From Octopus vulgaris (taxonomy: Eukaryota), in the NCBI GenBank assembly GCA_951406725.2, contig OX597843.1, positions 9,486,001-9,550,000 on the forward strand: a stretch of 64,000 bases of DNA. Direction: 5' to 3'. The notes beneath the pieces were generated by a model that had not been told where the DNA came from, did not search any database, and saw only the letters and a program-made list of their open reading frames with translations. This document shows positions 6,400-57,523 of this stretch, one piece after another (within the stretch, counting starts at the first letter, position 1; each line of letters begins with the position of its first letter). The translations under genes and the position numbers were made by a program.

Positions 6400-6563
6400 T
6401 ATTTCTTTACTACCCACAAGGGGCTAAACACAGAGGGGACAAACAAGGACAGACAAAGGATTAAGTCTTCACAACATCGACCCCGAAAGGATGAAAGGCA
6501 AAGTCGACCTCGGTGGAATTTGAACTCAGAACGTAGCGGCAGACGAAATACCTATTTCTTTAT
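6400..6563 (-). mobile_element. SINE family B fragment with unit-unit junction
   Basis: Matches 28255-28485; junction GAAATACCTATTTC at 6545-6558. Confidence 0.85.
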
Positions 6564-20169: not shown

Positions 20170-20775
20170 CACACACACACATATATATATACGACAGGCT
20201 TCTTTCAGTTTCCATGTACCAAATCCACTCACAATGCTTTGGTCAGCCTGAGGCTTTAGTAGAAGACACTTGCCCAAGGTGCCACGCAGTGGGACTGAAC
20301 CCGGAACCATGTGGTTGGTAAGCAAGCTACTTACCACACACCCACATATATATATATACATATATACGACGGGCTTCTTTCAGTTTCCGTCTTCCGAATG
20401 CACTCACAATGCTTTGGTCAGCCTGAGGCTTTAGTAGAAGACACTTGCCCAAGGTGCCACACAGTGGGACTGAACCCAGAACCATGTGGAAGCATTACTT
20501 ACCACACACCCACATATATATATATACATATATACGACGGGCTTCTTTCAGTTTCAGTCTACCAAATCCACTCACAAAACACACACATACACACACACAC
20601 ACACACATATACGACAGGCTTCTTTCAGTTTCCGTCTACCAAATCCACTCACAATACACACACACACACATATATATATATACATATATACGACAGGTTT
20701 CTTTCAGTTTCCATGTACCAAATCCACTCACAATGCATTGGTAAGCAAGCTACTTACCACACAACCACTCCTGTG
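20170..20775 (-). mobile_element. Cluster of partially duplicated SINE A heads separated by microsatellites
   Basis: (G)CTTCTTTCAGTTT...CACTCACAA recurs five times. Confidence 0.8.
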
Positions 20776-21148: not shown

Positions 21149-21804
21149 TGAACCAATTCTACTATATGGCTCAGAAACCTGGACGTTATCAAAGAAGCTT
21201 GAGAGGCGGTTGGATGGAACCTACACTCGCCTCCTTATGAGAGCTCAAAATCTCTCGTGGAAGCGTCATCCAACCAAAGTACAAATATATGGGAAACTAC
21301 CACCTGTGTCGTCTCTTGTGAAAGGTAGGAGAGTCCAGTTTGCTGGACATTGTTGTAGAGCTGAAAAAGAGGTAATTTCTACTCTTCTCCTCTGGAAGCC
21401 ATCTACTCGCAATACCAGAGGGCGCACACACTTCGAGAGGCAGTAGGATGGAACCTACACTCGCCTCCTTATGAGAGCTCAAAATCTCTCGTGGAAGCGC
21501 CATCCAACCAAAGTGCAAATATATGGGAAATTACCACCTGTGTCATCTCTTGTGAAAGGTAGGAGAGTCCAGTTTGCTGGACATTGTTGTAGAGCTGAAA
21601 TCGAGGCAATTTCTACTCTTCTCCTCTGGAAGCCATCTACTCGCAATACCAGAGGGCGCACACTCTCCTACCCTGATGTAATCTCCAGGGATACAGGCAT
21701 CCAGCAACAGGACCTCCGTAATGCTATGATGGATCGTGAAGTCTGGCATAGCATGGTAAATTCCATTGTCTCGACCACGGTCGAACAATGATGATGATGA
21801 TGAT
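21149..21804 (+). mobile_element. RTE-like LINE family 2 3' end with 234-bp internal duplication, inserted into a SINE A
   Basis: EPILLYGSETWTLSKKLERRLDG...QFAGHCCR...DREVW, stop and (TGA)n tail; SINE A head at 21081-21149 resumes at about 21805 with TGTGTG duplicated. Confidence 0.9.
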
Positions 21805-23543: not shown

Positions 23544-24716
23544 CATATATACGACAGGCTTCTTTCAGTTTCCGCCTACCACATCCACTCACAAGGCATT
23601 GGTCAGCCCGGGGCTATAGCAGAAGACACTTGCCCAAGATGCCACGCAGTGGGACTGAACCAGGAACCATGTGGTTGGTAAGCAAGCTTCTTACCACACA
23701 GCCACTCCTGCGCCTATATGATGGGCTTCTTTCAGTTTCCATCTACCAAATCCACTCACAAGGCATTGGTCGGCCCGGGGCTATAGCAGAAGACCCTTGC
23801 CCAAGATGCCACGCAGTGGGACTGAACCCGGAACCATGTGGTTGGTTAGCAAGCTACTTACCACACAGCCACTCCTGCGCCTATATGATGGGCTTCTTTC
23901 AGTTTCCATCTACCAAATCCACTCACAAGGCATTGGTCGGCCCGGAGCTATAGCAGAAGACACTTGCCCAAGATGCCACGCAGTGGGACTGAACCAGGAA
24001 CCATGTGGTTGGTTAGCAAGCTACTTACCACACAGCCACTCCTGCGCCTATATGATGGGCTTCTTTCAGTTTCCATCTACCAAATCCACTCACAAGGCAT
24101 TGGTCGGCCCGGGGCTATAGCAGAAGACACTTGCCCGAGATGCCACGCAGTGGGACTGAACCCGGAACCACGTGGTTGGTAAGCAAGCTACTTACCACAC
24201 AGCCACTCCTGCGCCTATATGATGGGCTTCTTTCAGTTTCCATCTACCAAATCCACTCACAAGGCATTGGTCGGCCCGGGGCTATAGCAGAAGACACTTG
24301 CCCGAGATGCCACGCAGTGGGACTGAACCCGGAACCACGTGGTTGGTAAGCAAGCTACTTACCACACAGCCACTCCTGCGCCTATATGATGGGCTTCTTT
24401 CAGTTTCCATCTACCAAATCCACTCACAAGGCATTGGTCGGCCCGGGGCTATAGCAGAAGACACTTGCCCGAGATGCCACGCAGTGGGACTGAACCCGGA
24501 ACCACGTGGTTGGTAAGCAAGCTACTTACCACACAGCCACTCCTGCGCCTATATGATGGGCTTCTTTCAGTTTCTGTCTACCAAATCCACTCACAAGGCA
24601 TTGGTCGGCCCGGGGCTATAGCAGAAGACACTTGCCCGAGATGCCACGCAGTGGGACTGAACCCGGAACCACGTGGTTGGTAAGCAAGCTACTTACCACA
24701 CAGCCACTCTTACACC
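23290..24716 (-). repeat. SINE A with its 167-bp head amplified to 7 tandem copies
   Basis: Added units start at 23716, 23883, 24050, 24217, 24384 and 24551 after the full copy at 23290-23715. Confidence 0.95.
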
Positions 24717-28254: not shown

Positions 28255-28480
28255 GGCGGCGAGCTGGCAGAAACGTTAGCACGCCGGGCGAAATGCGTAG
28301 CCGTGTTTCGTCTGCCGTTACGTTCTGGGTTCAAATTCCGCTGAGGTCGGCTTTGCCCTTCATCTGTTCGGGGTCGATAAATTAAGTACCAGCTACGCAC
28401 TGGGGTCAATGTAATCGACTTAATCCCTTTGTCTGTCCTTGTTTGTCCCCTCTGTGTTTAGCCCTTTGTGGGTAGTAAAG

Positions 28481-28485
<5 letters not shown>
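28255..28485 (+). mobile_element. Full-length monomeric SINE family B
   Basis: GGCGGCGAGCTGGCAGAA (A box), GGTTCAAATTCC (B box), central CTTTGCC.TTCATC..TTCGGGGTCGATAAATTAAGTACCAG (resembles Meta-type SINE domain), end AAAGAAATA. Confidence 0.9.
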
Positions 28486-28531
<46 letters not shown>

Positions 28532-28838
28532 TATACACACTGGTAGGTAGGGGGATATAGCTACATAGATACAGATTGAGATCAGATGAGAGAAAGAGAA
28601 TCAGACAGAGATAAAGAAAAGCAGAAACTGTATAGGAGTGTTGGAGAGATTCTTCCCTGATTTCATGTGGGAAGATGTTACATAGTTTTAGAGTGGGCGA
28701 GGATGTGTGAAGCAGAGGACACAGATCACCACCACGCCATATCTCTTTTGAACCAACAACTATCACCCCAATGCACACCTGCCACAATGATATGACAATA
28801 CCACCACTAAAATACTGCCGTCAAAACAGTAACATACC

Positions 28839-29252
28839 TATTTCTTTAGTACCCACAAGGGGCTAAACATAGAGGGGACAGACATAGGTATATGTAGTAT
28901 TAAGTCGATTACATTGACCCCAGTGCGTAACTGGTACTTAATTTATCGACCCCGAAAAGATGAAAGGCAAAGTCGTCCTCGGTGAAATATGAACTCAGAA
29001 AGTAGCAGCAGGCGAAATACATATTTCTTTACTACCCACAAGGGGCTAAACATAGAGGGGACAAACAAGGACAGACATAGGTATTAAATCGATTATATCG
29101 ACCCCAGTGCGTAACTGGTACTTAATTTATCGACCCCGAAAAGATGAAAGGCAAAGTTGATCTCGATTGAATTTGAACTCAGAATGTATTGGCAGACGAA
29201 ATACCGCTAAGCATTTGGCCCATCATGCTAACGCTTCTGCCAGCTCGCCGCC
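28839..29252 (-). mobile_element. SINE B head plus 2 units, 46-bp TSD
   Basis: Direct repeats 28793-28838 and 29255-29300 (1 mismatch); internal junction near 29014-29027. Confidence 0.92.
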
Positions 29253-29351
29253 TTTGACAATACCACCACTAAAATACTGCCGTCAAAATAGTAACATACC
29301 ACTGGTGTACTACTATAGATGACACCATACCACAAGCAATGTAACACTACA

Positions 29352-31664: not shown

Positions 31665-31960
31665 CGATTAAATAAGTACCAGTTACGCACTGGGGTCGAT
31701 ATAATCGACTTAATCCATTTGTCTGTCCATGTTTGTCCCCTCTATGTTTAGCCCCTTGTGGGCAATAAAAAAATAGGTATTTCGTCTGCCGCTACGTTCT
31801 GAGTTCAAATTCCGCCGAGGTTGACTTTGCCTTTCATCCATTCGGGGTCGATTAAATAAGTACCAGTTACGCACTGGGATCGATGTAATCAACTTAATCC
31901 GTTTGTCTGTCCTTGTTTGCCCCCTCTGTGTTTAGCCCCTTGTGGGTAGTAAAGAAATAG
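31665..31960 (+). mobile_element. SINE B, 5'-truncated multimer (about 1.5 units)
   Basis: Junction AAATAGGTATTTCG at 31771-31784. Confidence 0.88.
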
Positions 31961-33159: not shown

Positions 33160-36100
33160 TCCCTTAGCATTTAAGCCAGTCATATCCAGACCAAATATTC
33201 TACCTGTTTTATATTCATATAGACCAGATCTGGGCCATCACACCTACCCTACAATGTCATTCTAAAAATAAACAATCACATCTTTGAAACCTCAAAAGCT
33301 ATAAGATAATGCATGATTAATTCAAAACAAGGCCAGATCCAGCTTCTCACACCTACCCTACAATGTCATTCTAAAAATAAACAATCCCATCTTTGAAATC
33401 TCAAAGCTATGAGATAATGCAGGATTGATTCAAAACAAGGCCAGATCCAGCCTCTCACACCTACCCTACAATGTCATTCTAAATTAAAACAATCCCATCA
33501 TTTAAATCTCAAAATTATGAGATAATGCATGATTGATTCAAAACAAGGCCAGATCCAGCCTCTCTCACCTACCCTACAAAGTCATTCTAAAAATAAACAA
33601 TCTCATCATTGAAATCTCAAAGCTATGAGATAATGCAGGATTAATTCAAAACAGGGCCAGATCCAGCCTCTCACACCTACCCTACAATGTCATTCTAAAT
33701 TAAAACAATCCCATCATTGAAATCTCAAAATTATGAGATAATGCATGATTGATTCAAAACAAGGCCAGATCCAGCCTCTCACACCTACCCTACAATGTCA
33801 TTCTAAAAATAAACAATCTCATCATTGAAATCTCAAAGCTATGAGATAATGCGGGATTAATTCAAAACAGGGCCAGATCCAGCCTCTCACACCTACCCTA
33901 CAATGTCATTCTAAATTAAAACAATCCCATCATTGAAATCTCAAAATTATGAGATAATGCATGATTGATTCAAAACAAGGCCAGATCCAGCCTCTCACAC
34001 CTACCCTACAAAGTCATTCTAAAAATAAACAATCTCATCATTGAAATCTCAAAGCTATGAGATAATGCATGATTAATTCAAAACAAGGCCAGATCCAGCC
34101 TCTCACACCTACCCTACAAAGTCATTCTAAAAATAAACAATCTCATCATTGAAATCTCAAAGCTATGAGATAATGCATGATTGATTCAAAACAAGGCCAG
34201 ATGCAGCCTCTCACACCTACCCTACAAAGTCATTCTAAAAATAAACAATCACATCATTGAAATCTCAAAGATATGAGATAATGCATGATTAATTCAAAAC
34301 AAGGCCAGATCCAGCCTCTCACACCTACCCTACAATGTCATTCTAAAAATAAACAATCACATCATTGAAATCTCAAAGCTATGAGATAATGCATGATTAA
34401 TTCAAAACAAGGCCAGATCCAGCCTCTCACACCTACCCTACAATGTCATTCTAAAAATAAACAATCACATCATTGAAATCTCAAAGATATGAGATAATGC
34501 ATGATTAATTCAAAACAAGGCCAGATCCAGCCTCTCACACCTACCCTACAAAGTCATTCTAAAAATAAACAATCTCATCATTGAAATCTCAAAGCTATGA
34601 GATAATGCAGGATTAATTCAAAACAGGGCCAGATCCAGCCTCTCACACCTACCCTACAATGTCATTCTAAATTAAAACAATCCCATCATTGAAATCTCAA
34701 AATTATGAGATAATGCAGGATTAATTCAAAACAAGGCCAGATCCAGCCTCTCACACCTACCCTACAAAGTCATTCTAAAAATAAACAATCTCATCATTGA
34801 AATCTCAAAGCTATGAGATAATGCAGGATTAATTCAAAACAGGGCCAGATCCAGCCTCTCACACCTACCCTACAATGTCATTCTAAATTAAAACAATCCC
34901 ATCATTGAAATCTCAAAATTATGAGATAATGCAGGATTAATTCAAAACAAGGCCAGATCCAGCCTCTCACACCTACCCTACAATGTCATTCTAAATTAAA
35001 ACAATCCCATCATTGAAATCTCAAAATTATGAGATAATGCAGGATTAATTCAAAACAAGGCCAGATCCAGCCTCTCACACCTACCCTACAATGTCATTCT
35101 AAATTAAAACAATCCCATCATTGAAATCTCAAAATTATGAGATAATGCAGGATTAATTCAAAACAAGGCCAGATCCAGCCTCTCACACCTACCCTACAAA
35201 GTCATTCTAAAAATAAACAATCACATCATTGAAATCTCAAAGCTATGAGATAATGCAGGATTAATTCAAAACAGGGCCAGATCCAGCCTCTCACACCTAC
35301 CCTACAATGTCATTCTAAATTAAAACAATCCCATCATTGAAATCTCAAAATTATGAGATAATGCAGGATTAATTCAAAACAGGCCAGATCCAGCCTCTCA
35401 CACCTACCCTACAATGTCATTCTAAATTAAAACAATCCCATCATTGAAATCTCAAAATTATGAGATAATGCAGGATTAATTCAAAACAAGTCCAGATCCA
35501 GCCTCTCACACCTACCCTACAATGTCATTCTAAATTAAAACAATCACATCATTGAAATCTCAAAATTATGAGATAATGCATGATTAATTCAAAACAAGGC
35601 CAGATCCAGCCTCTCACACCTACCCTACAATGTCATTCTAAATTAAAACAATCCCATCATTGAAATCTCAAAATTATGAGATAATGCAGGATTAATTCAA
35701 AACAAGGCCAGATCCAGCCTCTCACACCTACCCTACAAAGTCATTCTAAAAATAAACAATCACATCATTGAAATCTCAAAGCTATGAGATAATGCAGGAT
35801 TAATTCAAAACAGGGCCAGATCCAGCCTCTCACACCTACCCTACAATGTCATTCTAAATTAAAACAATCCCATCATTGAAATCTCAAAATTATGAGATAA
35901 TGCAGGATTAATTCAAAACAGGGCCAGATCCAGCCTCTCACACCTACCCTACAATGTCATTCTAAATTAAAACAATCCCATCATTGAAATCTCAAAATTA
36001 TGAGATAATGCAGGATTAATTCAAAACAGGGCCAGATCCAGCCTCTCACACCTACCCTACAATGTCATTCTAAATTAAAACAATCCCATCATTGAAATCT

Positions 36101-37058
36101 CAAAATTATGAGATAATGCAGGATTAATTCAAAACAGGGCCAGATCCAGCCTCTCACACCTACCCTACAATGTCATTCTAAATTAAAACAATCCCATCAT
36201 TGAAATCTCAAAATTATGAGATAATGCAGGATTAATTCAAAACAGGGCCAGATCCAGCCTCTCACACCTACCCTACAATGTCATTCTAAATTAAAACAAT
36301 CCCATCATTGAAATCTCAAAATTATGAGATAATGCAGGATTAATTCAAAACAGGGCCAGATCCAGCCTCTCACACCTACCCTACAATGTCATTCTAAAAT
36401 AAAACAATCCCATCATTGAAATCTCAAAATTATGAGATAATGCATGATTAATTCAAAACAAGGCCAGATCCAGCCTCTCACACCTACACTACAATGTCAT
36501 TCTAAAAATAAACAATCCCATCTTTGAAATCTCAAAGCTATGAGATAATGCAGGATTAATTCAAAACAAGACCAGATCCAGCCTCTCACACCTACCCTAC
36601 AATGTCATTCTAAAAATAAACAATCCCATCATTGAAATCTCAAAATTATGAGATAATGCATGATTAATTCAAAACAAGGCCAGATCCAGCCTCTCACACC
36701 TACCCTACAATGTCATTCTAAAAATAAACAATCACATCATTGAAATCTCAAAGCTATGAGATAATGCAGGATTAATTCAAAACAAGGCCAGATCCAGCCT
36801 CTCACACCTACCCTACAATGTCATTCTAAAAATAAACAATCACATCATTGAAATCTCAAAGCTATGAGATAATGCATGATTAATTCAAAACAAGGCCAGA
36901 TCCAGCCTCTCGCACCTACCCTACAATGTCATTCTAAAAATAAACTATCCCACCCTTGAAACCTAGAAGCGATGAGATTTTGACAACACAGGATTAATTC
37001 AAAACAATGTGAATAAATAAGCAATACGTTTGTCAGATTAATCTGAATGCACAAAGGA
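33160..37058. repeat. MITE family 1 copy carrying about 35 tandem 108-bp units (33222-37007)
   Basis: Period 108 (GGCC at 33331, 33439, 33547 ... 36894); MITE left end TTAA|TCCCTTAGCATTT and right end CAAAGGA|TTAA retained. Confidence 0.95.
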
Positions 37059-40384: not shown

Positions 40385-41209
40385 GGCAGCGAGCTGGCAG
40401 AATCGTTAGCGCGCCGGGCGAAATGCTTAGCAGTATTTCGTCTGCCATTACGTTCTGAGTTCAAATTCCGCCGAGGTCGGCTTTGCCTTTCATCCTTTCA
40501 GGGTCGATAAATAAAGTACCAATTACGCACTAGGGTCGATGTAATCAACTTAATCCCTTTGTCTGTCCTTGTTTGTCCTCTCTGTGTTTAGCCCCTTGTG
40601 GGTAGTAAAGAAATAATTATTAAATTCTAAAAATATAATAGGGTTTTTAAAAGCATCAAATGGATTGGAGCCTGGTACAGCCATCTGGCTCGCCAGCCCT
40701 CAGTCAAACCCATGTCAGCATGGAAAGCAGACGTTAAACGACGACGACGATGATGAAATGGCTATGAAGGTTCATTGGAGAAAAACAGGAATTGAAGTGG
40801 TCCATAGGTGCAAAGCAGGTATGGATGTGTGGTAAGAAGCTGTCTTCCCAATCACATGGTTCTGGGTTCAGTTCCACTGTGTGGCACTTTGGGCATATGT
40901 TTTCTACTCTAGCCTTGGGCCGGCTAAAGTCTTGTGGGTGGATTCGGTAGACAGAAACGAAGAAGCCTGTCATAAGGTGGCGAGCTGGCAGAAATGTTAG
41001 CATGCTGGGCGAAATGCTTAGCGTTTTGTTTTTGTCTGTCTTTACGTTCTGAGTTCAAATTCCGCCGAGGCTGACTTTGCCTTTCATCCTTTTGGGGTCG
41101 ATAAATTAAGTACCAGTTAGGCACTGGGGTCGATGTAATCGACTTAATCCCTTCGCCTGTCCCTGTTTGTCCCCTCTGTGTGTAGCCCCTTGTGGGCAAT
41201 AAAGAAATA
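40385..41209 (+). mobile_element. Two monomeric SINE B copies (40385-40615; 40976-41209, nested in a SINE A)
   Basis: Match 28255-28485. Confidence 0.88.
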
Positions 41210-42113: not shown

Positions 42114-42502
42114 AGCTGGCAGGAACGTTAGCACGCCGGGCGAAATGCTTAGCGGTATTTCATCTGCCGTTACGTTCCGAGTTCAAATTCCGTCGAGGTC
42201 GACTTTGCCTTTCATCCTTCCAGGGTCGATAAATTAGGTACCTATTTCTTTATTACCCACAAGGGGCTAAACATAGATGGGACAAACAAGGACAGACATA
42301 GGTATTAAGTCGATTCCATCGACCACAGTGTGCGTAACTGGTACTTAATTTATCGACCCCGAAAGGATGAAAGGCTAAGTCGAACTCGGGTCGATAAATT
42401 AAGTACCAGTTACGCACTGGGGTCGATGTAATCGACTTAATCCCTTTGTCTGTCCTTGTTTGCCTCCTCTGTGTTTAGCCCCATGTGGGTAGTAAAGAAA
42501 TA
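42114..42502 (+). mobile_element. SINE B containing an antisense SINE B unit (42241-42388)
   Basis: GGGTCGATAAATTA.GTACC duplicated around the inverted unit; outer ~35-bp direct repeat TATGTAGG(TC)n(TA)nTCCATA. Confidence 0.85.
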
Positions 42503-44003
42503 TATGTAGGTCTCTCTCTCTCTATATATATATCCATACATGTATATACACATATAGATGTGTAAGTCAGTCTATCAATATAAAATATACAGATGTGTAG
42601 GCCTGCCTATCTATCCATCCATCCATCCATCCATATACTCTAGGAATGGTAGATGAGTTCAGTAAAAAATTTAGATTCAGATGTAAAAAATTTAGATTCA
42701 GATGAATATGGTACTTATGTTGAGGAACCAGAATTTAGTATGGTATTATCCATACAATTTAAAATAAGGTGATTAAAATCAAAATAAGCAACAAGGATGT
42801 CCATCCATATATATCATCATCGTTTAGCATCTGCTTTCCATGCTAGCATGGGTTGGACGGTTCAACTGGGGTCTGGGAAGCCAGAAGGCTGCACCAGGCT
42901 CCAGTCTTATCTGGCAATGTTTCTACGGCTGGATGTCCTTCCTAACACCAACCACTTTTTACGTGCCACCTGCACAGGTGCCATACGAGTCTGGCAAACG
43001 GCCACGAACGGATGGTGCTTTTTACGTGCCACCGGCACGGAGGCCAGTCGGGGTGGCGCTGGCAACAGCCACGTTCGGATGGTTCGCTTACATACCACCG
43101 GCACTGGTATCACAGCTACAATTTCCATTGATGTTGATCTGATCAACGGAACAGCCTGCTACTGAAATTAACATACAAGTGGCTGAGTACTCCATAACAT
43201 GCATACCCTTAATGCAACGAAACTGGCCTATTCCAATACAGATACAACGAATTTTTGGCAGCTGAGCGGGCTGGTGTAACATGAAATCAAGTGTCATGCT
43301 CAAGGACACAACAAATTGCTGGAAGTCATCTTGCTAGTTCCCATCAAACCGTCAAACCCATACCAGCATGCAAAACGGACATTAAATGACGGTGATGATA
43401 TATATGGCGCACGAGTGGCTGTGTGGTAAGTAGCTTGCTAACCAACCACATGGTACCGGGTTCAGTCCCACTGCGCGGTATCTTGGGCAAGTGTCTTCTG
43501 CTATAGCCCCGGGCCGACCAAAGCCTTGTGAGTGGATTTGGTAGACGGATATATATATATGCGTGTGTGTGTTTGTCTCCCCAGCATTGCTTGACAACTG
43601 ATGCTGGTGTGTTTACATCCCCATCACTTAGCGGTTCGGCAAAAGAGACCGATAGAATAAGTACTGGGCTTACAAAAGAATAAGTCCCGGGGTCGAGTTG
43701 CTTAATTAAAGGCGATGCTCCAGCATGGCCGCAGTCAAATGACTGAAACAAGTAAAAGAGTAAAAGAGTATATATATATAGCCTGGTTTCCCACTGGTTA
43801 CGTCAACGCATGTTCCAGCTGCTTTGGTCAACAGAACAACCTGGCCGAGTACTCCACAGACACGTGTACCCTTCATATACTTCTAACGATGATCATACAT
43901 ACGGCCTGGTTCTTTGTTGGTTGCAACTATGAGGGTTCCAGTTGCTTTGGTCAATGGAACAACCTACTCATACTAGTGGTTGAGTACTCCACAGACAAGT
44001 GTA

Positions 44004-44590
44004 CCTATTTCTTTACTGCCCACAAGGGGCTACACACAGAGGAGACAAACAAGGACAGACAAGGAGATTAAGTCAATTACATCGACCCCAGTGTGTAACT
44101 GGTACTTATTTAATCGACCCTGAAAGGATGAAAGGCAAAGTCGACCTCGGCGGAATTTGAACTCAGAACGTAGCGGAGACGAAATACCTATTTCTTTACT
44201 ACCCACAAGGGGCTAAACACAGAGGGGACAAACAAGGATAGACAAACGGATTATGTCAATTATATCGACCCCAATGCGTAACTGGTACTTATTTAATCGA
44301 CCCCAAAAGGATGAAAGGCAAAGTCGACCTCAGCGGAATTTGAACTCAGAACGCAACGACAGACGAAATACCTATTTCTTTACAACCCACAAGGGGCTAA
44401 ACACAGAGGGGACAAACAAGGACAGACAAATGGATTAAGTCAATTATATCGACCCCAGTGCATAACTGGTAGTTATTTAATCGACCCCCGAAAGGATGAA
44501 AGGCAAAGTCGACCTCGGCGGAATTTGAACTCAGAACGTAGCGGCAGACGAAATACCGCTAAGCATTTCGCCCGGCATGCTAACGTTTCT
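44004..44590 (-). mobile_element. SINE B head plus 3 units, inserted in a family C SINE
   Basis: Junctions at 44181-44194 and 44365-44378 (period 184); TSD CTCCACAGACA.GTGTACC. Confidence 0.92.
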
Positions 44591-44802
44591 CCACAGACAT
44601 GTGTACCCTTAACGTAGTTCTCAGGGAGCAGGATGTGACAAGGTTGGCCCTTTCAATTGCAGCTACTACTCATCCTTGCCAACCCAGTGGTCTGGTGCAA
44701 CAGATGTAGAGTGTCTTGCTCAAGGATAAAACACGCCACCATGAACCGAACTCCCGACCTTACGACCGTCAAACACTCTAACCACTGAGTCATGTGCCCT
44801 CA

Positions 44803-46900: not shown

Positions 46901-48994
46901 GTTAACATTTCCATTATCTTCAATGCTAAATTTAATAATTATGAAAGGCAATCAAATACATTATAAGCAATTATAAGAACGGCATTTAGCACATCTGAGT
47001 GTGATTGTTGCCAGGGTCAAGGATTGGCTCCCGTGCCGGTGACACGCAAAAAGCACTATTTGAGTGTGATCGTTGCCAGCGCCGCCTTACTGGCACATGT
47101 GCTGGTGGCACATGAAAAACAACATTTGAGCGTGGTCGTTGCCAGTGCCACCGGACTGGCTCCCGTGCAGGTAGCACGAAAAAAACAGCTTTTGAGTATG
47201 GATGTTGCCAGAACCGCCTGGCACCCACTACACTCTCAGAGTGGTTGGTGTTAAGAAGGGCATCCAGCTGTAGAAACTTTGCCAGATCAGATTGTACCTA
47301 TTCCAAGTGTACCTATTTCTTTACTGCCCACAAGGGGCTACACAGAGGAGGGGACAAACAAGGATAGACAAACGGATTAAGTCGATTATATCGACCCCAG
47401 TGCATAACTGGTACTTAATTTATCTATTTCTTTACTACCCACAAGGGGTTAAACCGTCCAACCCATGCCAGCATGGAAAGAGGATGTTAAATGATGACAA
47501 TAAAACGACTAGGAAACTATGGGAGAAAAAAAAAAAAAGAATCTATGTTAAAATTTTATTGGTGGCATAGAAGCCAAATTCTTCAGAACAAAATTTACAG
47601 TCGAAAAAGAGAGGTTAGCATGACTGTGGAGAAACAAGAATTCCTTGTGAATGTTGCAGAATTTGGAAAGATAGAGGGCACGGCTATGTGGTAGGAAGTT
47701 CACTTCCCAAACATATGGTTCTGGGTTCAATCCCACTGCATCGTACCTTCGGCATGAGCCTTTGACTATAGCCTTGGGCAGACCAAAGCCTTTGTGAATG
47801 GATTTGGTGGACAGAAACTGAAAGAAGCCTATTATGTGTGTGTATGTGTGTAGATAGATATAGATATGTGTATGTATATAACCAAAAACCAAATCAAAAT
47901 AGATGAACATCAATGGAATTTGTATCTTTGTGGTACCAGTGCCGGTGGCACATAAGAAAATCATCCGAACATGGCCGTAGCCAGAACCGCATCGACTGGC
48001 CTCCATGCTGTGGGCACGTAACAAACACCATCCGATCATGGTCGTTCGCCAGCCTTGTCTGGCACCTGTGTCGGTGGCACATAAAAAACACCATCCGAGC
48101 GTGGCCGTCTGCCAGCCTCGTCTGGCACCTGTGTCGGTGGCACATAAAATCACCCACTACACTCTCGGAGTGGTTGGCGTTAGGAAGGGCATCCAGCTGT
48201 AGAAACACTGCCAGATCTGACTGGCCTGGTGCAGCCTTCGGGCTCCCCAGACCCCAGTTGAACCGTCCAACCCATGCTAGCATGGAAAGCGGACGTTAAA
48301 CGATGATGATGATGATGATGATGATGAGTGTGTCGTTGTGCCTGTGTCCATCCTCCACCCCCCCCCCTACTGCTTGCCAACCAGTGTCGGTGTGTTTATG
48401 TCCCCATAACGAAGTGGCTTGGCAAAAGGGAGTCATACACTAAGTCCCAAGCTTACAAAAAAATTAAATAAATATATAAAAAAAATAGTACTGAGGTTGA
48501 AGAATTCAACAAAAATTTCAAGACGGTGCCCCAGCATGGCCACAGTCAAATGACTGAAACAAGTGGAAGAGGTTTACACAAAAAACCTACATTAATCATG
48601 TGGTTTGGAATCATATCTCTCAACAACTGTGGAAAATCTATCAGTTCCACTGATAACCAAATCCATCTGTGTTCTCCATTCACTATTCCTGGGAGCATAG
48701 TAGGGGGTAGAGTCCCCAGGCACCTCCTTAATTGGCTCCTAAAAGAAGCAACTACCATTAGACTTTCCTGATGGATTCCTAAGTGTGATCAACTGAAATT
48801 TTGGATGTTATTCAATCATTTTGATCATGGTCTACCCCTAGTTCTTCTGCCAGTTACTGGGGTGGAGTCGTCAGGCACCTCCTCAATACGGTCTCATCAG
48901 AAGCAATCACCATTCTGAGACCACCCGAGGCTATAGCAGAAGACACTTGCCCAAGATGCCACACAGTGGGACCTTATCAAATTTCTGCTGTTAT

Positions 48995-52737: not shown

Positions 52738-53422
52738 CTACACTCGCCTCCTTATGAAAGCTCAAAATCCCTCGTGGAAGCGTCATCCAACCAAAATGCA
52801 AATATATGGGAAACTACTACCTGTGTCATCTCTTGTGAAAGGTAGGAGAGTCCAGTTTGCTGGACATTGTTGTAGAGCTGAAAACGAGGTAATTTCTGCT
52901 CTTCTCCTCTGGAAGCCATCTACTTGCGATACCAGAGGGCACCCACTCTTCGAGAGGCGGTTGGATGGAACCTACACTCGCCTCCTTATGAGAGCTCAAA
53001 ATCTCTTGTGGAAGCGTCATCCAACCAAAATGCAAATATATAGGAAACTACCACCTGTGTCATCTCTTGTGAAAGGTAGGAGAGTCCAGTTTGCTGGACA
53101 TTGTTGTAGAGCTGAAAAAGAGGCAATTTCTACTCTTCTCCTCTGGAAGCCATCTACTCACAATACCAGAGGGATACAGGCATCCAGCAACAGGACCTCC
53201 GTAATGCCATGATGGACCGTGAAGTCTGGCGTAGCATGGTAAATTCCATTGTCTCGACCACGGTCGCAATACCAGAGGGCGCACACTCTCCTACCCTGAT
53301 GTAATCTCCAGGGATACAGGCAGCCAGCAACAGGACCTCCGTAATGCCATGATGGACCGTGAAGTCTGGCGTAGCATGGCAAATTCTATTGTCTCGACCA
53401 CGATCGAACAATGATGGTGATG
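52738..53422 (+). mobile_element. RTE-like family 2 3' end with the same 234-bp duplication plus a second 3' duplication
   Basis: Junction CACTCTTC|GAGAGGCGG at 52951/52952, read through in frame by ORF 52754-53212. Confidence 0.9.
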
Positions 53423-53560: not shown

Positions 53561-54160
53561 AGCGGCGAGCTGGCAGAATTGTTAGCATGCTGGGCGAAAT
53601 ACTTAGAGGTATTTTTTCTGCCACTACGTTCTGAGTTCAAATCTCACCAAGGTTGACTTTGCCTTTCATCCTTTCGGGGTCGATAAATTAAGTACCAAAT
53701 GCGTATTGGGGATGATCTAATCAACTGGCCCCCTCCGCAAAAATTTTGGGCCTTGTGGCTAGAGTAGAAAAGATTATTATTATTATTATTATTAAGGCAG
53801 CGAGCTGGCAGAAACGTTAGCATGCCGGGCAAAATGCTAAGCGATATTTCGTCTGTCTTTACATTCCAAGTTCAATTTTGCCTTTCATCCTTCCGGGGTC
53901 AAAGAAATAAGTACCAGTTGCATACTGGGGTCAATCTAATTGACTGGCTCCTTCCCCCAAAATTTAGGGCCTTGTGCCTAGAGTAGAAAAGAATCGTTTG
54001 CACGCTGGGCAAAATGCTTAGCAGCCTTTTATCTGTCTTTACATTCTGAGTTCAAATTCCACTGAGGTCAACTTTGCCTTTCACCCTTCCGGGGTTGGTC
54101 AATGTAATCAACTCATCCTCTCCCACCAAAGCTTCAGGTCTTCTACCTATTGTAGAAACA
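53561..54160 (+). mobile_element. Three B-headed SINEs with an alternative tail (GGCCTTGTG.CTAGAGTAGAAAAGA)
   Basis: Same head and central domain as B, different 3' part. Confidence 0.78.
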
Positions 54161-54544
54161 ATTACATAACACAGAACTTCATACAAAAATTACTGCCCTG
54201 GGTCGACATACACATATGTATATATATATATATGCATATGTATCATATATACATATATAAAAATAGATATTTCACACACACACACACACACGTACGTACG
54301 TACGTATGTATGTATGTATGTATATGTGTGTGTCTGTCTGTCTTCAAACACTGCTGGTGTGTTTATGTCTCTGTAACTTAGCAGTTCAGCAAGAGAGTCC
54401 GACAGAATATGTCCCAGGTTTAAAAAACAAAAAAAAAACAAAACCACTGCAGTTGATTCATTAGATTAAAAGACTCTTCAAGGCTGTGCTCCAGCATGGC
54501 CACAGTTTAATGACTAAGACAAAACTAAAAGATTAGAGACACAC

Positions 54545-55395
54545 AGACACACACACGTATATATTTACACAAGCTTCGATATAGTTTCCACCTACCGAAT
54601 TCACTCTGAAAGGCTTTGCTGGTCTTGGGACGACAGACAACGAAGGGACATCTGTCTGAGGTGCCATGCAGTGGGACTGAAACCCACACCACGCAGTTGG
54701 GAAACCAACCCCGTAACCAAACAAACCATTCTCGCACCTACAAACACACACACACACACACACATGTATATATTTACACAAGCTTCGATATAGTTTCCAC
54801 CTACCAAATTCACTCTGAAAGGCTTTGCTGGTCTTGGGACGACAGATACGAAGGGACATCTGTCTGAGGTGCCATGCAGTGGGACTGAAACCCACACCAT
54901 GCAGTTGGGAAACCAACTCCGTAACCAAACAAACCATTCCTGCACCTACAAACACACACACACACACACACATACACATGCATATATTTACACAAGCTTT
55001 GATATAGTTTCCACCTACCAAATTCACTCTGAAAGGCTTTGCTGGTCTTGGGACGACAGGTAACGAAGGGACATCTGTCTGAGGTGCCATGCAGTGGGAC
55101 CGAACCCGAGACCACGCAGTTGGGAAACCAACCCCGTAACCAAACAAACCAGTCCTACACCTACAAACACACACACACACACATGCATATATTTACACAA
55201 GCTTCGATATAGTTTCCACCTACCGAATTCACTCTGAAAGGCTTTGCTGGCCTTGGGACGACAGATAACGAAGGGACATCTGTCTGAGGTGCCATGCAGT
55301 GGGACCGAACCCAAGACCACGCAGTTGGGAAACCAACTCCGTAACCAAACAAACCATTCCTGCACCTACAAACACACACACACACACACACACGC
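54545..55395 (-). repeat. Four tandem ~210-bp units of a diverged SINE A head with (CA)n linkers
   Basis: ATATTTACACAAGCTT.GATATAGTTTCCACCTACC...CACCTACAA repeated four times. Confidence 0.9.
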
Positions 55396-55793: not shown

Positions 55794-57523
55794 CAATGAT
55801 GGCAGTTCTGATGGTATACAAGACTAGTTCTGCATCTGTTGTCATCAATAAACTACAGACTCGACTCACGCCACCGCCGCCGCCACTCGAGACTTGCTAC
55901 CACCTCTCTCTGGTTGGTCTCTCACTCTCTCACCCGCCCTTTCACTTTCTCTCTCTCGCTCTCTATCTCGTTAAAAACTATCTCTTCTCCTCCACGCATT
56001 GTCCCCCTCTCTCTATCTATCAATCTCGTCTCTCGACTCCCCCCCCCCCCTCATCAATATAGCTGACACCTCACACCACCGCTCTTCGCTCTATCACTCT
56101 GTGGAATGTCAATGCTTCACAGTTTAAAAACAAGCCTACTGAACTTCATCAAAGAATTATCATTGGTGTGAGTATGCGTGTGTACACACACACACACACA
56201 CGCACGCACGCACACACACACACACACACACATGCACACATACACAATCACACACACGCACATAGCAATGGTGATATACTCCTTTACTCTTTTACTTGTT
56301 TCAGTCATTTGACTGCGGCCATGCTGGAGCACCGCCTTTTAGTCGAGCAACTCGACCCCGGGACTGATTCTTTTTTGTAAGCCTAGTACTTATTCTATCG
56401 GTCACTTTTTGCCGAACCGCTAAGTGACGGGGACGTAAACACACCAGCACCGGTTGTCAAGCAATGCTAGGGAGACAAACACAGACACACAAACACACAC
56501 ATATATATATATAAATATATACATATACGACAGGCTTCTTTCAGTTTCCGTCTACCAAATCCACTCACAAGGCTCTGGTCGGCCCAAGGCTATAGCAGAA
56601 GACACTTGCCCAAGGTGCCACGCAGTGGGACTGAACCCGGAACCATGTGGTTGGTTAGCAAGGTACTTACCACACAGCCATATATATTTATATATGTTTT
56701 TTTATTCGCTTAATTGCTGCAGTCATTTGACTGTGGCCATGCCGGAGCACCACCGTCAGGGGTTTTAGTCGAACAAATCAACCCCAGGACTTATTTTTTA
56801 AGCCTAGCACTTCTGTCTGTCTCTTCTGCTGAACCACTAAGTTACAGGGACATAAACACACCAACAGCGGTTCTCAAACGGTGATGGGGGAACAAAAACA
56901 GACACAGAGACACACACGCATGTGCACATACACAATCACAAGCGTAGCACTTCTATTGGTCTCTTCTGCTGAACCACTAAGTTACAGGGACATAAACACA
57001 CCAACAGCGGTTGTCAAACGGTGATGGGGGAACAAAAACAGACACAAAGACACACACACACATACGAGGGGCTTCTTTCAGTTTCCGCCTACCAAATCAA
57101 CCCACAAAGTTTTGGTCAACCCAAGGCTATAGTAGAAGACACTTGACCATAATGATTAAATGCTTGTGATGCATATTAGCTCACTCTCCCTCTATCAAAT
57201 TGAAATTGTCTGAACAGGTGCACAAGTCCACCATGTGCCAGGTGTTGAAATGATCACAGAGCAACAAGAGATGAAGTGTTTTGCTCAAGAACACAACACA
57301 CCACCCAGTCTAGGAATTGAAATCACAACCTAGTGACTGACAGTGCACTCTTGCATATATTCTTTTATTCTTTCGTTTGAGACATTTGACTGCGGCCATG
57401 CTGTAGCACTGCCTTTAATTGAAAAAAATCGACCCCGGGACTTATTCTTCTACAGAAAGGGACACAAAAAAAACAAGGAGAGAAAAAAAATATGTGTAGT
57501 GGCTAACGATCTATCATGGCAAC

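Follow-up and report, generated by a model that had tools for sequence, protein, structure and literature searches.

Nesting of a LINE-tailed SINE into its own copies as a probable origin of short tandem rows in Octopus vulgaris

Most of what is known about the share of RNA-DNA pairing, relative to the endonuclease, in site choice by non-LTR elements comes from a small number of site-specific LINEs. Pairing with the target has been proposed for the 3' read-through RNA of R1 (PMC2718515) and for the read-through or target-like RNA of SART1Bm (PMC7265360). In both, target-like RNA is proposed to anneal to the nicked bottom strand, initiation can occur internally at words resembling the target, and cDNA annealing yields precise 5' junctions; the octopus element described here would resemble R1 and SART1Bm in these respects. 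Those elements, however, are autonomous, have a sequence-specific endonuclease and use one host gene or repeat as target, whereas the octopus element is a non-coding passenger with at least 134,670 3' ends genome-wide. A second precedent is the crocodilian SINEU, which shares with Tx1-type LINEs (Tx1-Mar) a preferred target inside another mobile element; read-through from the target has been discussed there as strengthening the targeting, and related Tx1 families target microsatellites (PMC4494074), as do the LINEs found here. The octopus SINE also targets a site inside a mobile element, but that element is the SINE itself, which is entered at its head; the bias, being weak, is also visible at random sites, the target switches with the SINE subfamily, and no LINE was found at the main site among the copies inspected.

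The products of such a process have counterparts as well. Squamate SINE-derived satellites are rows of partial units in variable number with one longer terminal unit; their longer rows are more uniform, and unequal recombination has been proposed for them (PMC10702118, which also cites jerboa Dip/B1 multimers of up to eight full-length SINEs). The octopus rows share this layout but differ in that the unit boundary is the start point of reverse transcription joined to a defined target site, and in being short (at most 11 units in our sample), dispersed, flanked by target-site duplications (TSDs) and begun as mixed dimers. Metazoan non-LTR retrozymes likewise occur as monomers, dimers and multimers of tandem 150-300 bp units (PMC7761336; bioRxiv 10.64898/2026.07.22.740005); unlike them, the octopus element has no hammerhead, mixes its units, keeps a promoter-like head and carries a tail from an endonuclease-RT LINE instead of a Penelope-like element. 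Alu-type dimeric SINEs are joined monomers that move as a whole (SINEBase, PMC3531059), as here, but such dimers are fixed, whereas in octopus both the number and the combination of units vary and new joints keep forming. By analogy, the octopus system would work like target-specific SINE/LINE pairs with R1-type read-through priming and end like short SINE-derived satellites; all parts of this route have precedents. The available text of PMC4758252 and PMC13282606 contains no such rows, and we found no description of self-nesting in octopus SINEs in listings of the openly accessible literature; supplementary repeat libraries may hold these consensus forms.

The window, by which we mean the whole stretch of 64,000 nucleotides of O. 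vulgaris DNA analysed here, contains 25 matches to a 231-bp SINE, monomers, a dimer and truncated forms among them. At 44 kb a minus-strand trimer has a period of 183-184 bp and 3.0 copies (Table 1). An earlier description of this DNA, hereafter the sequence-only reading, had proposed that the element spreads as a head plus n units of 184 bp, and this organization is general: 32 of the 64 elements in 664 kb of unselected DNA are multimers. Across the 2.8-Gb genome, exact patterns matched 134,670 3' ends (reversed control, 4), 15,717 heads (0) and 26,662 junctions of 31 nt (0); at 231 bp the element qualifies as short, interspersed and present in more than 100 copies. The unselected sample comprises only loci L031-L070 and the 264-kb block around the window. 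Loci L001-L030, L071-L110 and L251-L280, mostly from one contig, were chosen for the main junction, and L131-L170 for an intact head.

Table 1. SINE copies and their TSDs in the 64-kb window (window coordinates; element positions run from 1 to 231)
Feature	Coordinates	Strand	Remarks
Trimer, unit 1	44373..44590	-	Element positions 15-231, the head truncated 5' of 15; shares 2 nt with upstream TSD copy
Trimer, unit 2	44189..44372	-	Element positions 48-231
Trimer, unit 3	44006..44188	-	Positions 48-231; alleles absent from units 1 and 2 in the 3' half
Trimer, downstream TSD copy	43987..44005	-	19 bp; starts GGTA, the "run-on" of the sequence-only reading
Trimer, upstream TSD copy	44589..44607	-	19 bp, 1 mismatch
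Dimer (full head plus one unit)	28839..29252	-	Units differ at 24/182 sites
Dimer, downstream TSD copy	28793..28838	-	46 bp, starts GGTAT
Dimer, upstream TSD copy	29255..29300	-	1 mismatch
5'-truncated dimer	31665..31959	+	Tail haplotypes differ between its two units
Single unit, internal deletion	6400..6563	-	About 12 nt of a tail upstream, a junction remnant
Host SINE copy, split by antisense insertion of the same SINE	42114..42502	+	
Antisense copy in the GGTAC site of the 42114..42502 host	42243..42387	-	20-bp TSD
Monomer in (TA)n tract	28255..28485	+	
Monomer	40385..40615	+	17-bp TSD
Monomer	40976..41209	+	
Truncated copy with extra tail joined at position 122	47314..47454	-	Atypical junction
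Three sister-family copies (same head and body, different tail)	53562..54103	+	Third starts at position 15 directly after a tail

The focal trimer fits the general picture weakly. A single TSD surrounds it, so it was either inserted whole or grew in place. Variants common to the units of a locus, to which the sequence-only reading had drawn attention, are a property of the genome sample, where units differ by 5.0% within a locus and by 9.8% between loci, but they are weak at the two loci then cited: the trimer units differ pairwise at 12/183, 12/182 and 17/182 sites (6.6-9.3%), and the 28.8-kb dimer units by 13%, more than the between-locus mean. The trimer units do have in common the TTAAATAA allele, carried by about 41% of sampled elements, and the less common allele 162T (8.6%). 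The 18-nt junction, described as essentially the same at each cited place, is exact at 6544, 44180 and 44364, with one mismatch at 31767 and a G>T change at 29013. Of two copies listed as truncated multimers, the one at 31665 is indeed a dimer, whereas at 6400 the upstream tail is too reduced for that label.

Two minor features of the window touch on its other copies. In the sister-family group at 53562-54103, and again at locus L222, a restart at position 15 lies right behind a sister-family tail, so that the sister family may nest there too. On the minus strand at 47290-47314, a tail-like word plus GGTAC is repeated in the flank 3' of the element, as after a repeated priming attempt.

Junctions fall into two classes. 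Among 112 unit 3' ends in the unselected DNA, 52 were followed by a restart at positions 44-53, six by one at 13-25 and one by a restart elsewhere; in 58 of the 112, then, the head site at 48 or 15 comes next, many of these junctions being inherited or expanded and not fresh insertions. The single fixed junction of the sequence-only reading holds in that position 48 dominates far beyond chance, but a second class restarts at position 15 (2,246 exact matches genome-wide, at least one of them a LINE end). In silico folding predicts the head hairpin, with position 48 as the first base 3' of its loop, in agreement with the restart at the loop edge noted earlier. The further placement of this point at a tRNA anticodon loop is only loosely true, being counted from the usual spacing of boxes A and B; ARAGORN called no tRNA, and Rfam returned no match in the window. 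Putative box A and box B look-alikes lie at about 11-25 and 73-85 of the SINE by the general consensus, and the element may resemble a named SINE superfamily or octopus family (MetaSINE, CORE, OR1/OR2/OK). The suggested pairing of the unit 3' end with the restart site is present in the fold of the majority-sequence unit but not in the one genomic 184-nt unit folded, whose ends are unpaired in the MFE structure and whose fold is no better than shuffles (z = -0.44).

The bases at the outer ends of the elements bear directly on how the junctions arise. Clear TSDs (score of at least 11) flank 44 of 171 elements, compared with 4 of 143 shuffled pairs; their length is variable, with a median of 15-17 bp. 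The GGTA following the outer 3' ends at 44002, 28835 and 42238 is the start of a TSD (19, 46 and 20 bp, respectively), and the same bases are also found upstream of the element; at 47310 no TSD was found. Fifteen elements combine a detectable TSD with a run-on of at least 4 nt, and the offset of the TSD start is 0 or -1 in every one of them. The apparent run-on is target DNA within the TSD, a relationship that the sequence-only reading overlooked when it took the outer GGTA for template continuing into another unit, as it overlooked the insertion of the element into its own copies. Because the run-on lies within the TSD, there is a single fixed base from which copying begins, and the likeness to the first bases of the next unit was in the target beforehand. 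That the template RNA continues into the next unit, as had been supposed, is very probable. Landing sites resemble the start of that unit.

GGTA starts 42 of 126 SINE outer ends and none of 30 LINE ends (p = 4e-5). We examined 150 outer flanks, having removed 11 of 161 as probable junctions for matching at least 8 nt, together with loci picked by their flank. A GG start was present in 39 of the 88 flanks with TA at +3/+4 (background 2.5%) and in 22 of the 62 without it (background 3.7%), while TA at +3/+4 was favoured even without GG (26/66; background 10%). Flanks starting GGTA continued with T at +5 in 24 of 39 cases (background 26%), after which the match to the next unit faded, from 12/24 at +6 to 6/12 at +7 (background level) and 0/6 at +8.

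The preferred target also depends on the tail. Units with the tail haplotype CA have AG flanks in 14 of 36 cases and GG flanks in 2 of 36, whereas T-haplotypes have GG flanks in 52 of 96 and AG flanks in 1 of 96 (CA vs T, p = 8e-8). Position-15 junctions start with AG, matching the AG landing sites of CA units, and CA accounts for 7 of the 14 position-15 junctions in the sample and, by hand count, about 64 among the first 100 matches listed, compared with 3 of 100 for position-48 junctions; ahead of the latter it is rare (7/206). The landing site thus follows the subfamily: GG-starting sites receive the units that join at position 48, and AG-starting sites those that join at position 15. The simplest reading of this switch is that the first bases of the next unit are present on the RNA, which pairs with the primer strand through them, although different partner endonucleases for each subfamily could mimic it.

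The tail of the SINE points to its machinery. SINE positions 189-231 or 204-231 are 84-96% identical to LINE 3' ends in 28 of 30 loci, recovered by a search that started from a fragment adjoining the window, and the tail common to both spans the last 28-43 nt. The last 43 nt of the SINE thereby correspond to the 3' terminus of a LINE in this genome that is of the endonuclease-RT type and putatively a member of the Tx1 clade. A related young LINE family has an intact ORF2 of 1,145 aa with the domain order endonuclease-RT-zf-RVT. None of the flanks of the 30 closest LINE copies starts with GGTA; two copies sit at SINE position 15 and none at position 48, a second set of 20 loci likewise yielded no LINE there, and two position-48 matches to the LINE-end search proved not to be LINE ends. 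A share of more than 20% of flanks in one sequence type has served as a criterion of target specificity (PMC4494074), and the 2 of 30 copies of the closest LINE at a SINE head site fall below it.

No LINE family could be retained as the partner. The first candidate ends in (ATT)n or a similar tract in most of the 30 loci, the young intact family also ends in (ATT)n-like tracts, and neither occurs at position 48. Pattern searches for LINE ends at position 48 gave mutated SINE tails instead: none of 30 inspected matches was a LINE end, and 20 of 20 inspected from 172 matches were SINE copies. A Penelope partner was dropped because the tail matches an endonuclease-RT LINE. LINE subfamilies at L131, L136, L119, L162 and L221-L250 have a similar 3' hairpin and A-rich end, followed by differing tracts: (ATCT)n or (CT)n, (ATT)n, or none. 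Copies of the young intact LINE themselves stand in head-to-tail rows with a period of about 5.87 kb, joined through the (ATT)n tail, at L311 and L312 (G000:C4:93.80-93.84 Mb), C1:202.33 Mb, C47 and C50.

Insertion of the SINE into its own copies can be seen directly. A partial head followed by a new head has 67 exact matches genome-wide, of which 30 were fetched and 27 remained once 3 duplicates had been removed. At 20 of these 27 loci host sequence continues from position 48 behind the new copy and 13-22 nt are duplicated, a length to which the search pattern itself contributes at least 13 nt; five have a partial head without resumption at 48, and two lack a matching tail. The break point varies among nested loci, and at L189 and L190 alleles peculiar to the host are part of the duplication. 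Nested insertion at position 48 with duplication of the host stretch does occur, and antisense nesting at the GGTAC site accounts for a further 404 junctions genome-wide, one of them in the window. Partial heads can also arise or travel by other routes, as at the five loci without resumption, and one partial-head junction recurs at several loci. Caught nestings are rare relative to junctions (67 vs 26,662 exact matches), and no upstream partial head occurs in 152 head-bearing multimers outside the selected set, so most junctions are not caught in the making. At L190, on the minus strand from 200, 20 tandem copies of the first 68 bases of the SINE precede a full copy as a head-derived minisatellite.

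The heads of composite arrays carry mixed signals as to their source. Their divergence (6.6-7.4%) lies between that of monomers (5.3-6.2%) and that of 11 young sister monomers (9-16%), and it correlates with neither unit. Eleven of 12 informative dimers have the donor type at position 63, and the 43G allele is depleted in composite heads (2/38 vs 20/63). On divergence and alleles together, composite heads are neither clearly host nor clearly donor.

We consider it probable that the rows begin when this LINE-tailed SINE nests into itself, guided by read-through RNA, loses the extra head and then grows in register. The SINE would borrow LINE machinery, its copies ending at one fixed base where the TSDs start. 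The run-on of a read-through RNA would pair with nicked target DNA, adding to the weak TA preference of the borrowed endonuclease, and this pairing would make the SINE's own head, at position 48 or 15, the best target in the genome. A nested insertion at position 48 would duplicate a stretch of the host, and the redundant head would then be lost, through 5' joining guided by homology, a later deletion between the heads, or remobilization of a read-through transcript from the inner head. The resulting mixed dimers of head, unit and unit would again yield transcripts carrying the run-on, giving positive feedback, and longer rows would grow by in-register misalignment of neighbouring units, in DNA or during reverse transcription.

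The odds are about even that the read-through tail acts as a short guide RNA for the LINE machinery, so that the sequence behind a source copy sets the landing site of its daughters. If so, one early nesting made the family self-homing, two subfamilies two tail bases apart home to two sites in the same head, and the genome preserves natural records, in the tens of thousands, of how RNA directs the choice of target during target-primed reverse transcription. A passenger SINE would then display the pairing effect at ordinary genomic sites, switching with subfamily. Nesting followed by misalignment would also show in concrete terms how a dispersed SINE can give rise to short tandem rows, the step left open for SINE-derived satellites.

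The first joining might instead take place without a genomic host, if the reverse transcriptase, having copied a SINE RNA as far as position 48 or only into the body common to both, moves to the 3' end of a different SINE RNA and goes on copying there; template switching between SINEs has been proposed (PMC4824008). Such jumps would account for the seamless heads, for the donor-type position 63, for mixed units and sister-family last units, and for a single TSD around whole arrays, which we detected in 17 of 50 B-ending and 6 of 40 C-ending multimers, numbers too few and biased for a comparison of ages. They do not predict that last units are older than first units, which they are (more diverged, p = 8e-4), nor the depletion of 43G in composite heads, the host-specific duplications at position 48 or the antisense hotspot, and they would still need run-on pairing to fix the junction. 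We regard this route as unlikely; of the end-to-end jumps invoked by the sequence-only reading, those between different RNAs might still serve the first joining, whereas repeated copying of one RNA is not supported.

Unit composition is what tells against one RNA. Agreement at all eight diagnostic sites was seen in 10 of 86 two-unit arrays, 1 of 21 three-unit arrays and none of 23 longer arrays, for which random draws give 3%, 0.1% and 0%, respectively; overall, full concordance is limited to 11 of 130 arrays, more than the 1.9% that random draws give, and the other 119 are discordant. Third bases, matching neither allele, occur at only 55 of 2,722 diagnostic sites, so recurrent mutation cannot explain the discordant arrays. 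Units within two-unit arrays differ almost as much as unrelated units. The last unit is of the sister family in 58 of 188 multimers and unclassed in a further 48, and 17 of the 188 mix both junction types within one array. The 52 sister-family last units differ by a mean of 16.5%, with no pair within 3% (first units, 9.7%), which implies many independent joinings, although some hundreds of source copies are possible.

The sequence-only reading had proposed, as one of two options, an RNA cut in the head loop, closed into a 184-nt circle and copied round, which would give a fixed junction, paired unit ends as in the majority-sequence unit, the likeness within loci, the 11 concordant arrays and the near-identical row at L110. 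Its expectation that units would cluster within loci and vary in number is borne out (sampled multimers have 2 to 11 units), but the likeness is staggered and not uniform, and most arrays are discordant, including all the long ones. Moreover, a circle would carry no head, whereas 133 of 161 multimers have a full head at their start and only 5 begin at the restart point, and a circle does not account for sister-family last units or mixed junction types. That no hammerhead is visible, as stated earlier, was confirmed by the absence of Rfam matches in the window and of a core motif on either strand of the majority-sequence dimer. The element thus shows neither the hammerhead nor the single circular template of a retrozyme; loop-cleaved circular RNA is not supported, is largely refuted as the main route and has very little probability left to it. 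The junction was also present in assembled contigs of four runs guessed to be RNA, where a circle and a transcript of a genomic tandem are indistinguishable, and these contigs were not used as evidence.

Longer rows would grow by misalignment of neighbouring units. In arrays of at least three units, 34 of 36 shared rare alleles cover only some of the units, once in alternating order. First and second units converge toward the 3' end (from 0.097 to 0.036), penultimate and last units toward the 5' end (0.038 vs 0.110), and inner neighbours differ by 2-3% throughout. This staggered likeness is what results when a new unit takes its 5' part from one neighbour and its 3' part from the next. In about 8 of 28 dimers the units are less than 4.5% apart, and at L110 ten B units differ by 0.3%; recent duplication or a single template would both fit these cases. 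Tandem partial units with a longer terminal unit, a trait of SINE-derived satellites, are present, and 6 of 188 multimers have at least six units, the satellite definition asking for at least four homogenised middle units.

A purely DNA-level origin, in which a monomer is duplicated in tandem through the short GGTA repeat between head and flank, could draw on the third of outer flanks that start GGTA, on those closely similar dimers and on unequal exchange as a source of staggered growth. Most dimers, however, have units of different sources, and such duplication can neither add a sister-family unit nor explain the target bias. As the origin of the rows it is most improbable; as the route for growth beyond two units, DNA-level duplication is likely.

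One or a few master genes with fixed internal repeats, the simpler alternative that the sequence-only reading had named, might have left the scarcity of CA before position-48 junctions as a position bias, the recurrent partial-head junction and the TSDs showing that multimers do move as a whole, but with n from 2 to 11, freely varying unit combinations and no close pair among the sister-family last units this scarcely credible reading is refuted, while a few hundred sources would remain compatible with the data.

The window also holds tandem repeats of other families. At 23557-24709, 6.9 copies of a 167-bp unit, 98% alike and with a constant junction, are a better candidate for single-template or recent copying than this SINE. 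Further partial tandems of the 167-bp family or its relatives lie at 20181-20734 (175/79 bp), 54539-55390 (205 bp) and 56800-57057 (140 bp), separated by microsatellite tracts. A 108-bp satellite occupies 33238-36961 with 34.5 copies and 95% matches, and a 234-bp unit occurs as a tandem pair at two places, 21201-21663 and 52738-53173.
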